A stretch of DNA of 64,000 nucleotides from Malacoraja senta (Eukaryota). The notes below the pieces were generated by a model that ran no database searches, was not told the origin of the DNA, and worked only from the letters and a program-made list of their open reading frames with translations. The stretch is from NCBI GenBank assembly GCA_038087875.1, contig CM075989.1:4030001-4094000 (forward strand), read 5' to 3'. Positions 4,217-64,000 of the stretch are shown one piece after another (position 1 is the first letter of the stretch; every line of letters starts with the position of its first letter). A program made the translations under genes and the position numbers.

Positions 4217-7200
4217 GTGAGTGCAAGATAGTTAAAGATCATCACTGGTTTACCACCCAGGCTAATATATATTCTTCCCTTCAGTGCCCCTGTCACTTAT
4301 AGAGCATTCCGCACCGCAGTAGTAGCCAGCCTCCTTGCACTTTGTTGCTTTTGAACCAAATACTGGAAGGTCTTTGGGAGAAGCCATTAAATCACCTGGA
4401 AAATGGCAATTTTACTGTGCAAATCCTTAAAGAGAATTATCCATGTACTGTAGCTCCACTCCCTTGCTCAATTCCCACAGCAGGTGATTTTCTTTTTTCC
4501 TTTTTCCGTACATGTACTGTTAGGTCTTGAATGTTGCTTTAGAGACTGCTGGTTGTGTCGATGTAGTTTTGATCGTGTCTGCTTATTGTGTTTTTTAAAT
4601 AATTCTCTTCGGCTGGTTTGTTTCTCAATTATCTGTGATAGTTCACTAGTGACTTTTGAAAGAGTACTAAAACATTTATATTATCTCTGTTCATATGGAG
4701 AATAATCCCAATTTCTGCAGTTGTTCAAAATCTTTAATTGTTGGAATACTTCTGGTAAAATTATAGCATTGGAAGAAACATACTTTCTACTGTATGGCAT
4801 CCAAAACTATGGCATAACTGGAATTAATAATCAATCTGAAGTGTCCCGACCAGAAAAGTCATTTATCTATTCACTCCACAGATACAGCGTGTCCCACTGA
4901 GTTCCTCCAGCACTGTTTTTTGCTCAAGATTCCATCATGTGCAGCTTCTTGTGTCACCGTTTTGAAGGCATAAACTGTCATTTAATTTTTTTTTAAAGTT
5001 TAAAGTAATATCCTTGGTTTTATATCCTATGCTTCTATATGTAACTGCATGAATTTTGCATGATTTATTAACTGATCAGCTTGTATTGCCATCTTTTAAA
5101 CATTTGTGTTTACACACTCTTTACAATTGCCAGACATCAATTAAATTAACATTCCCCTCTTCCTAATCTTACAGTATAAATCTGGCTAGTGCTGTCCTTG
5201 GTTATCTATTACAGGGGATGTGTCAAGATTAATTCTCACAACAAATCTATGCTTATCACAGCCTTGTGCCAGTGTTTACTTGCACATTTGAGAACCAAGA
5301 CACTTGTTTATAATAATTATGTTTGGATCTTGTGATCAAGAGGAGAAATATTGGTGCTGAGGATTGATTCACTTTCCAGATTAGACACCCATTATCAGAA
5401 AGATATTCTGCACTGGCACATAGAACAGCAGAGGAACATGCTCTTCGGCCCATTATATCCTTACCGAACATGATGCCAAGTTAAATCAATCTCCTCTGAC
5501 TGCACATGATCCATATCCCTCCATCCCCTGCATATCCATATGCCTATCCAAAAGCCTTTTAAATGGCACTATCGTTTATGCCTCTATCATCAATCCTGGC
5601 CGCACATTCCAGGCACACACCACTCTTTGTGTAATAAAAACCTTGGCCCACACATTTCTTTTCAACTGGCCTTAAATCTATGCCCTCCAGCCTTAGACAT
5701 TTCCATCCTGACTGTGTTACTCTACAAATGCTTCTCATAATATATATGTCTTTCAGGTCTCTCCTCAGCCACTGATGCTCCAGAGAAACCGATTCATGTC
5801 TGTCCAACCTCTGCTCATAAATTATACCCACTAATCCAGACAGCATTCTGCTAAATGTGGACACAAGGAACTGTAGATGCTGGTTTACAAAAAATGACAC
5901 AAAGTGCTGGAGTAACTTTTTTGGCATTCTGCTAAACCTTCTTTACACTCTCTCAAGTCTCCACATCCTTCCTGTAATGGGATGACCAGAACCGCACATA
6001 ATGATAATGGGATGAACAGAACTGCACTAATGTGTATAAAATATGCACAAAAAGTGCAAAATTAGGCATGGGTTATATATAAAGCAAAACTCCAACACCT
6101 TTTCAGTTAGCACTCTCCATTTAGGTGTTATCTGATTTAATGTCATTAAAGGCTCTACATACCAATATACCAAAAAAAGCACCAGCTATTGCACAAATGA
6201 TATTTATTTCTCCAATGCCCACTCCTTTTTGGTGTGAATAATGTCAAAACTGTTCTATATTTATCCACACAGGCTGGAGAAGTTGTCTTTCAACATTTGC
6301 TTTGATTGCTGATCATAGGACTGCTGATAGGTGGGATAATAGACTGAGAGAATTTGAGAATGACCACATTTCTAACTCTAAAATTAAACATTTATTATTG
6401 GTTTAAACAAAAGGATACCACGTTCTGGGATAATTCAGCGGGTCAAACAGCATCCCTGAAGATCATGGATAGGTGACGTTTCGGGTCAAGACTCTTCTTC
6501 AGGCTATTGCACAACTGTTACTTATTTTTCCTTTCCCATTCCCATTATTATTTTTCCAGTGTGAAGAAGAGTCCCGACCTGAAACGTCACCTATTCGTGT
6601 TCTCCAAAGATGCTGCCTGACCGCTGAGTTATTCCAGCACTTTGTGTCTTTTGTAAACCAGCATCTGCATTTCTTTCTGTCTCTATTTATTGCTGTAACG
6701 TTGCCTTTTTGATCATCCCTTGTTCCCCTCCCCTCTGTCTTACTGCTCTATTTTGTTTTGTTTATTCCTGACTCTCAATTGTAAAGCGACTTTGAGTCCT
6801 GAAAAGCGCTATATAAATAAAATCTATTATTATTATTATTATTATTATCCCTTAGCTGAACCGATACTATGAACTGGAAGAAGACCTGCTTCCTCCGCTC
6901 AAGCTAGAGAGTTGCATCACCACTCAGGGAGGTCAGATCTACCTCCAAGAACCACTGGTAATCACATCATTTCCTCCTGTTTGAACCCTGAAATTTAGAT
7001 CAACAGATATTGTGCCCTATGTGAGGTTAATGTCTATGAGAAGACACAGAGCGCTGGAGTAACTCAGCGTGTCAGGCAGCATCTCAGTGGAACATGGAAA
7101 GGCGACGTTTCAGGTTGGGACCCTACTTCAGTCTGAAGAAGGGTCCCTTCTTTTGTAAACGAGCATCTGCAGTTCCTTAGACAAAAATGCTGGAGAAACT

Positions 7201-62938: not shown

Positions 62939-64000
62939 CAAAGATAGTCTACGGGTCTCCAATGAGGTAGAAAGTAGTTCGGGACTGCTCTAGTTGTTGG
63001 TATTAGCAACCCATTTCCCTCAACCGGCTGTCTTGCTTCCAACATGGACTGGCTTTGTATATGGAAGGATGGGATTCATTCTGACATACGCACCCCTATT
63101 AGGCGAAGAGCCTTTGGACACACAGGCATTGATAACCCTGACTGCTGCTTCTATTGTTGGCAGCGAGAGGTGAAATACAGCAACACTTAACACAGTGAAT
63201 ACTCGAGACCTTCAACTGATGAAGTGAGTGGGCAAAGGACAAGGGGCATCCTTGCTGAGTTATTCTGTGCAATTTCTGTGCAAAATAAAATCACCCAACA
63301 GTAATCAGCAACAATCTTGTTTGATAATGCGTTCTCTATCTCAGATTCCCTCTGCAGCACTCCAGTTTTAAATGCTTTAAGATGTAATCACCCATTACAA
63401 AAAACTATCCATCCTGGGGAACCAGGGGGGGGGGGGGGTTACGATTGGACTTGGATATAGTCTGTACCAATCTACTGCTCGAGAGGTTGACAAAAATCCT
63501 GACAAAATCTGAGCTTGCTGGGTGGCATTGCTAAATGGGCCATTTGCCAGGACTCCGAACTTTATACGATTCTTTTTTTTTTTTTGCACAGATGGTGCCA
63601 AAAAACACAGATGTATATTTTGCAAGGTTCAAATGATAATGACTAAAGTGCTGCCACTTAATCTTTTAAAGCAAAGAGTAAAAGCTGCTAATTAATTAAC
63701 ATCTGGTACTGCACAGCTCTCACAAGCCCCTCTGTCAATTATGTTGTACATTGTAGACCAGAGGAACTGCAGGCCTCGCACCAGCGAGCCCATTTGTTTG
63801 TTTAGTCTGTGGATGTGCATCATATTCAACCAAGAGTTGAAGGGATGAAAGTATTCAATTTAAATACTCAAATTAGCTAAATATATTTAGAGTAAAATGT
63901 TGCTGAGTTAGTTCAACCATAGAAATATATATATATTTTTTTAAGACTTCAGTCTATAGGTCATTTCCATGTTCTTAATTGTTTTATTCCTCCCATTTGT

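Follow-up and report, generated by a model that had tools for sequence, protein, structure and literature searches.

The window analysed here is a 64,000-nucleotide stretch of the Malacoraja senta genome (GCA_038087875.1, contig CM075989.1, positions 4,030,001 to 4,094,000, forward strand) that overlaps an exon of FANCI (8916-9332, plus strand; Pfam FANCI_HD2, E value 3 × 10^-12) and is interspersed with 'arms', copies of a short repeat carrying a minimal hammerhead ribozyme motif. We identify these repeats, with a probability of about 95%, as the terminal pseudo-long terminal repeats (pseudo-LTRs) of autonomous Penelope-like elements (PLEs), a family of retrotransposons. Because the window overlaps the FANCI exon, at least the copies near it are likely intronic; no strand bias relative to the host gene was seen, either among all arms (19 plus, 15 minus) or among those holding the start of the core (9 plus, 9 minus), both counts being small.

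A first profile, built from four window copies, finds 36 arms in the window at an E value of at most 0.01 and none in each of five dinucleotide shuffles; a second, built from 39 genomic copies, finds 34. An arm sits at all 19 positions at which the initial annotation had placed a recurrent short family. Nine arm pairs lie head to head, and the window therefore holds about 26 insertions, listed below with positions relative to the motif counted from C3 of the core as 0 (UTR, untranslated region).

569-625, plus: 3' end and tail alone; profile match
4830-4951, plus: old, decayed, tailed solo arm; profile match
6407-6674, both strands: older head-to-head pair; arms 6407-6508 (minus) and 6556-6674 (plus)
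7040-7147, minus: older arm; carries a short inverted stub that has its centre at the palindrome immediately 5' of the core
7177-7398, both strands: head-to-head pair; untailed minus arm 7177-7264, tailed plus arm 7264-7398; strict motif 7270-7297 (plus)
8389-8479, minus: old, decayed solo arm; profile match
11190-11314, minus: young solo pseudo-LTR of family D without tail; motif 11255-11282; 32 nt of 3' UTR; target-site duplication
14611-14773, both strands: head-to-head pair; part of the core missing at the junction
15413-15591, both strands: old head-to-head pair; profile match
17096-17250, both strands: head-to-head pair without catalytic core
26526-26612, minus: solo arm beginning within the core
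32752-32968, both strands: head-to-head pair; minus arm untailed, plus arm tailed
33431-33519, plus: solo arm of an older subfamily, beginning within the core
39396-39459, plus: coreless arm fragment; profile match
39860-39949, plus: old arm; UTR of about 28 nt; 3' portion gone
42690-42783, minus: weak, highly decayed arm; first profile only
43492-43598, plus: old arm fragment; profile match
45805-45960, both strands: head-to-head pair without catalytic core
46714-46878, plus: solo arm; core 46762-46789; 3' UTR of 30-48 nt
49906-49980, plus: coreless arm fragment; profile match
55955-56063, plus: solo arm beginning 3 nt upstream of the core; core 55961-55988
57620-57917, both strands: head-to-head pair; cores 57688-57715 (minus) and 57817-57844 (plus); about 50 nt of 3' UTR per arm
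58492-58570, minus: coreless arm fragment; profile match
60849-61036, both strands: head-to-head pair; plus arm begins at +2
61258-61322, plus: old arm fragment; profile match
62810-62937, minus: young solo pseudo-LTR of family D with tail; motif 62909-62936; start 1 nt before the core; 14-bp target-site duplication; predicted cut between 62909 and 62908

Core letters are intact in 8 of the 34 arms and the strict motif in three (7270-7297 on the plus strand, 11255-11282 and 62909-62936 on the minus strand). Neither tblastn nor blastn detects a remnant of the element's open reading frame (ORF) in the window, in keeping with the earlier description of these copies as non-coding. Genome-wide, the 31-nt core has 13,276 exact matches and a degenerate strict hammerhead motif 58,086, with none for either reversed control. 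In a random sample of the 1.94-Gb genome (91 evenly spaced 10-kb stretches, 910 kb), 343 arms make up 3.7% of bases, which extrapolates to about 7 × 10^5 arms in the genome; an arm this short, at about 4% of the sampled DNA, is easily mistaken in annotation for a short interspersed nuclear element (SINE), a miniature inverted-repeat transposable element (MITE) or a microRNA hairpin. The same family is present in contigs of three other organisms, with loose ends near both 3' termini.

The autonomous element and its motif

Several genomic copies are preceded by the C-terminal end of an ORF and a UTR rich in pyrimidines. Of the 46 loci found by searching with the reverse transcriptase (RT) thumb, most have motif-bearing arms immediately downstream of the ORF and on its strand, and 20 loci picked for long frames hold 21 ORFs of more than 1,150 amino acids, 19 of them flanked by the motif on both sides; by hand count, 25 of 150 scored ORF starts fall in open frames of at least 1,186 codons. 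The intact element has a single 1,212-residue ORF with an RT and, at its C-terminus, a GIY-YIG endonuclease (EN) (Pfam RVT_1, E value 1.3 × 10^-6; GIY-YIG, 1.6 × 10^-3), separated by a CX4CxxC linker (CNRKRCNTC) at residue 1079. An autonomous Penelope element sharing the terminus of the short copies, as envisaged in the initial annotation, is thus at hand.

The motif lies 115-117 nt downstream of the stop and 163-164 nt upstream of the ATG in intact copies, and intact young elements have a unit length of 3,876-4,152 bp, in the order ORF stop, pyrimidine-rich 3' UTR, YCAGT, hammerhead motif (0 to +27), a first 3' end near +93, a 37-nt tail, a second end near +130, leader and ATG at +163. Partial or full tandems are the rule, as the element's 3' end precedes 35 of the 42 distinct copies that hold the ORF start; head-to-head pairs account for 132 of the 343 arms in the random sample. 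A nearly identical pseudo-LTR is found in several families whose UTRs range from about 90 to 360 nt, their similarity starting at the YCAGT before the core.

The element likely belongs to the Neptune clade, a label that rests on the linker and the vertebrate host rather than on an RT tree; a CX2-5CxxC linker is a mark of Neptune that Nematis shares, according to the parts of PMC8557442 drawn on here. Its nearest named proteins come from Chiloscyllium (69%), Rhincodon (67%) and Hypanus (65%), none of them labelled as a PLE.

Some loci depart from this organization. L223 (G000:C562) and L229 (G000:C2340) hold whole elements head to tail with a period of 3,996-3,997 bp, and these arrays are candidates for transcripts with two hammerheads. 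L052:1147-1275 has an upstream ATG near +49; the frame it begins, 41 codons long, overlaps the main ATG and adjoins a donor-like AAG/GT, possibly an intron or an upstream ORF. L096, L099, L111 and L183 have short inserts past the tail, made up of leader and ORF-start sequence, the insert of L111 being joined directly to the start of the core.

The motif agrees with the minimal hammerhead consensus given in the alignment of PMC4209133 as far as it was available, having the core, an extra base after A9, G10.1-C11.1, a palindromic 15.2/16.2 and NUH, so that its designation as a Penelope-type minimal hammerhead stands. The proposed stem II hairpin is present, but it has 4 bp (GGGU/RCCC) and a YYCG tetraloop, since 5 bp would leave an impossible 2-nt loop. 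Stem I has 2 bp, as first noted, with A-C at position 2.3-1.3 in 201 of 294 arms. A longer stem I that draws in UTR bases was also considered; it reaches 4 bp in some families, has no common register by eye and is not conserved. Within the motif, the subfamilies among the same 294 arms are told apart by loop 2, by H17 (C or U) and by pairs 10.4 and 2.1-1.1 alone; the cleavage triplet of the second subfamily is GUU and not GUC. Their changes at paired positions are confined to U-A/U.G, and none falls on a catalytic position, compared to 17 variable columns of about 66 downstream. This invariance would lend modest support to selection in master elements, in which the motif is intact; inserted copies decay at CpG rates (C11.1 and G12 retained in 78-79%).

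The Rfam scan of the window did not recover the motif, giving no hammerhead match at an E value of at most 1; its 36 matches, mostly to microRNA-hairpin models on inverted pairs, all lie below the gathering score, and the pair at 57620-57917 is a source of the hairpin matches. The ribozyme-like motif is likely inactive by itself, and, going by PMC4209133 and PMC11167929, any cleavage would be weak and dependent on a dimer or on protein.

Insertion ends and the copying route

Family D, for which the reference is complete, was examined through 43 copies conditioned on an intact core. Their 3' ends form two clusters (+92..95 and +126..131), and their 5' ends fall at -10..0 in 24 copies, at -13 and -32 in one copy each and at -183 or beyond in 17; within the last group, truncations cluster at -183..-206 (5 of 43) and -312..-317 (3 of 43). 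Among the 324 arms of the random sample whose ends were counted, incomplete UTR references for the old families may inflate the peak at -6..+1, where 40 of 117 solo arms of at least 85% identity begin, compared to 28 elsewhere in +2..+50. By exact pattern, 2,175 matches end at -3 and 2,480 at -2 against 419 at -5. Tailed and untailed copies halt at the same place (short copies make up 7 of 12 and 16 of 30, respectively), so the stop is set by position, and a stop by processivity length is ruled out. Copies that hold the ORF start behave otherwise: only 1 of 36 stops at the core edge of the upstream pseudo-LTR, compared to 24 of 43 (P = 1 × 10^-7), the other 35 reading through.

Target-site duplications of at least 10 bp (10-21 bp) flank 19 of 33 testable copies and 1 of 33 controls, ten of the 43 having been excluded for an inverted partner, an incomplete end or length. 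These duplications lie directly against the core, without an exon captured in between, and short re-priming duplications of the first 12-38 nt are located at the stop, which fits a template end. The 103 inverted pairs analysed have 99 distinct junctions, repeated only at palindrome centres. Leaving aside 19 pairs unclassed for tails, 62 of 84 combine one tailed and one untailed arm (42 expected, P = 7 × 10^-6), 15 have neither arm tailed and 7 have both.

These regularities suggest that pseudo-LTRs insert as solo arms of about 95-135 bp or as head-to-head pairs, and that uncleaved RNA likely gave rise to the short ones as run-off cDNAs, an account in which we have good though not full confidence; the sharply fixed ends are likely a trace of the element's copying route. 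By analogy with the Poseidon element of the anole (PMC11167929, in the sections examined), the element protein would nick the target, and reverse transcription would begin within the RNA at +93 or +130. The template would be uncleaved RNA; both strands would often be primed, each from one start site, and the two cDNAs joined head to head. Short copies may end at -6..+1 since the RNA starts there, presumably at an initiator-like TCAGT with A(-3) as the first base, a proposal for which we see even odds. TCAGT resembles the initiator consensus. Long and partial-tandem copies would need multimeric or circular templates, or strand transfer between pseudo-LTRs; for full-length copies, later homing into a pre-existing pseudo-LTR is possible. 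The hammerhead would be under selection in masters, where it might cut weakly, as a dimer or with the aid of protein, insertions then decaying neutrally.

A number of observations weigh against parts of this account. The RVT_1 and GIY-YIG matches are both below curated cut-offs, no RT tree stands behind the identity, and some full-length loci are possibly assembly or segmental duplicates. The conservation of the core is only modestly special, because the whole pseudo-LTR is conserved between families, and covariation, which the initial annotation had made a test of the motif, is missing: across 11 sequences, none of six pairs has a change in both partners. At -4.2 vs -11.4 kcal/mol, the hammerhead fold falls about 7 kcal/mol short of the best fold, in which the core pairs with downstream pyrimidines, and single strands fold no better than shuffles (z-scores -0.5 to +0.6). 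Blunt joining or microhomology is seen at half of the resolved junctions (14 of 28) and leaves the exact end imprecise. The cap-G signal is weak: by hand count, G precedes AGT in 36 of 100 cases (about 27% expected, P = 0.03), and it precedes GT in 54 of 100 compared to 22 of 100 in the control, about 30 of the 54 being GG, which re-priming also fits. Finally, as only 1 of 36 full-length passes stops there, a model in which all RNA starts at -3 is wrong alone, and a second template class is needed.

That contrast between first and later passes, together with the weak cap-G signal, also suits a competing explanation that keeps the identity of the element and places at -6..+1 a first-round road-block or a telomerase-like template boundary in lieu of an RNA 5' end, which we regard as a serious possibility, if a less favoured one. 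The site could double as a 3' splice site (polypyrimidine tract and YAG) occupied by splicing factors or the element protein: pyrimidines and CAG terminate every ORF-linked UTR type, and the intron of Drosophila virilis Penelope ends where helix I begins, according to the portion of PMC4209133 considered. However, no spliced, back-spliced or ORF-end splice junction occurs in the loci examined (the lone regular-expression match is an inverted junction), the target-site duplications adjoin the core without a captured exon, a static block ought to halt second passes too, and G is mildly enriched at -4 and -3, not at -6.

The initial annotation had instead seen a separate, non-coding retrozyme-like family spreading as a unit through ribozyme processing, to which a MITE-like variant may be added. 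Its very high copy number and the absence of the ORF from most arms would agree with this, as would a 2026 preprint that derives animal retrozymes from PLE pseudo-LTRs (10.64898/2026.07.22.740005, in the part available). We nevertheless hold it to be improbable: the copies are the element's own ends, individually inserted with target-site duplications, and short and long ones form one series with 3' ends in common. Of the 293 tandem arrays found in 974 kb, just 2 hold a core, both with 1.9 copies of 35-38 bp; nearly all pair junctions differ, whereas a MITE would keep a fixed internal junction; the CpG at G12/C11.1 decays in the copies; and head-to-head arms would base-pair together, burying the core. 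A derivation of the short copies from hammerhead-cleaved RNA by reverse transcription is more improbable still, in spite of the motif being preserved in masters: 5' ends are expected at +28, yet only 1 of 117 solo and 4 of 84 paired arms begin at +26..+30, and the anole element takes unprocessed RNA in vitro (PMC11167929, same sections). Linear 3' cleavage products are thus essentially refuted as templates, ligated circles being still possible.

Returning to run-off copying of uncleaved RNA, some short copies may derive in trans from short RNAs, as SINEs do. One could go further and picture a self-contained module, in which an initiator 3 nt before the core yields a short RNA that the Neptune protein copies from +93 or +130, the strong-stop-like cDNAs insert either alone or as inverted pairs with a single tail, solo copies could serve in trans as donors in the manner of SINEs, and full-length RNA is copied in the form of circular or multimeric templates; this picture is tentative and, as a whole, less likely than not. 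The Penelope transposition cycle and the role of its ribozyme are open questions on which this genome bears, with a large natural sample and four regularities: a fixed first-round stop, full-length run-through, a cleavage site devoid of ends and inverted pairs with one tail. If the picture of a self-contained module is true, the arms would be fossils, numbering in the hundreds of thousands, of a Penelope transposition step that we did not find described in the literature searched.

Other features of the window

A GC-rich frame of 291 codons (50929-51804, plus strand) has no Pfam match and by eye resembles what we take to be a decayed retrocopy of a CCCH tandem zinc-finger gene (ZFP36-like). 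RT-bearing fragments of long interspersed nuclear elements, presumably CR1-like, lie at 729-1214, 10310-12027, 18411-18914, 23263-25172, 26617-27348, 29956-30459, 44575-45799 and 58592-59343, and the segments 23264-24428 and 44635-45799 are inverted and 98% identical. A GDSL/SGNH esterase domain (31491-31973, minus) is likely a remnant of a CR1 ORF1, and a zf-RVT match (53027-53710, plus) likely the end of an L1/Tx1-type ORF2. The window also contains a minisatellite (30665-31197; 37-bp unit, 14.5 copies) and another short, abundant family that occurs in both orientations (for example, 22730-22940, 42357-42565, 43032-43240 and 43904-44112), presumably a shark HE1-type SINE.

Comparison with known systems

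The sources cited in this section were available in part, and the comparisons apply to those parts. Minimal hammerheads in PLEs have been known since 2014 (PMC4209133), and published accounts already cover minimal hammerheads that stand alone or on opposite strands, inverted pseudo-LTRs and a tail at one end (PMC4209133, PMC8557442, PMC3846280 and the review PMC6765202). The fixed 5' stop, the contrast between first and second passes and this family itself were not found in the literature searched, although subscription papers, Repbase, Dfam or supplements may hold them.

With the metazoan PLE hammerheads of Cervera and de la Pena (2014, PMC4209133), the motif has in common CUGANGA, the extra base, G10.1-C11.1, GAAA, the palindromic CG at 15.2/16.2 and NUH, as well as the occurrence of solo motifs and opposite-strand pairs. 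Its 2-bp stem I is as short as in the D. virilis, Culex and Oikopleura rows, whereas the 4-bp stem II with a YYCG loop sets it apart; the alignment rows examined include no cartilaginous fish. The 58,086 motifs counted here compare with about 4,000 in the coelacanth and about 9,000 in Xenopus, by different search methods, and are no record, because the axolotl has up to 120,000 (PMC7229834; 10.64898/2026.07.22.740005).

Animal non-LTR retrozymes (same two sources) are likewise non-coding, with a type I hammerhead and kinship to PLE pseudo-LTRs, but form head-to-tail tandem arrays expressed as circles, whereas the copies here are dispersed, solo or inverted, with target-site duplications; the preprint's sample includes one chondrichthyan. 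The promoter of D. virilis Penelope (Schostak 2008, PMC2377424) is internal and TATA-less, with an initiator in the pseudo-LTR; there, 46 nt separate the transcription start from a downstream 75-nt intron whose end is at the ribozyme, whereas the start proposed here would lie at the ribozyme edge.

The Poseidon element of Anolis carolinensis, PAc (Frangieh 2024, PMC11167929), similarly has two RT start sites that bound the tail, and we count as alike the cutting and extension of both strands, the unprocessed RNA template and a hammerhead in need of protein help. PAc differs in clade, in an ORF that begins at stem II and in RT starts inside that ORF, and no fixed 5' stop is reported for it in the sections examined. 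The young, intact Neptune-type ORFs described here would suit the in vitro assay that has so far been run only on a Poseidon element.

The element also resembles EN-bearing (EN+) PLEs of the Neptune clade (PMC8557442, PMC3846280), with which it shares a single RT and GIY-YIG ORF, the CX2-5CxxC linker, pseudo-LTRs, partial tandems, an inverted 5'-truncated copy and an optional tail of 30-40 bp at one end. It differs in the prevalence of the bare pseudo-LTR (the extrapolated 7 × 10^5 arms), in its long ORF (1,212 residues) with a variable Pro-rich N-terminal region and in the location of the tail, which is part of the 5' leader and not of the ORF. Judged by this sequence organization, the element is an EN+ PLE and would work like one, its clade being assigned by linker and not by tree.

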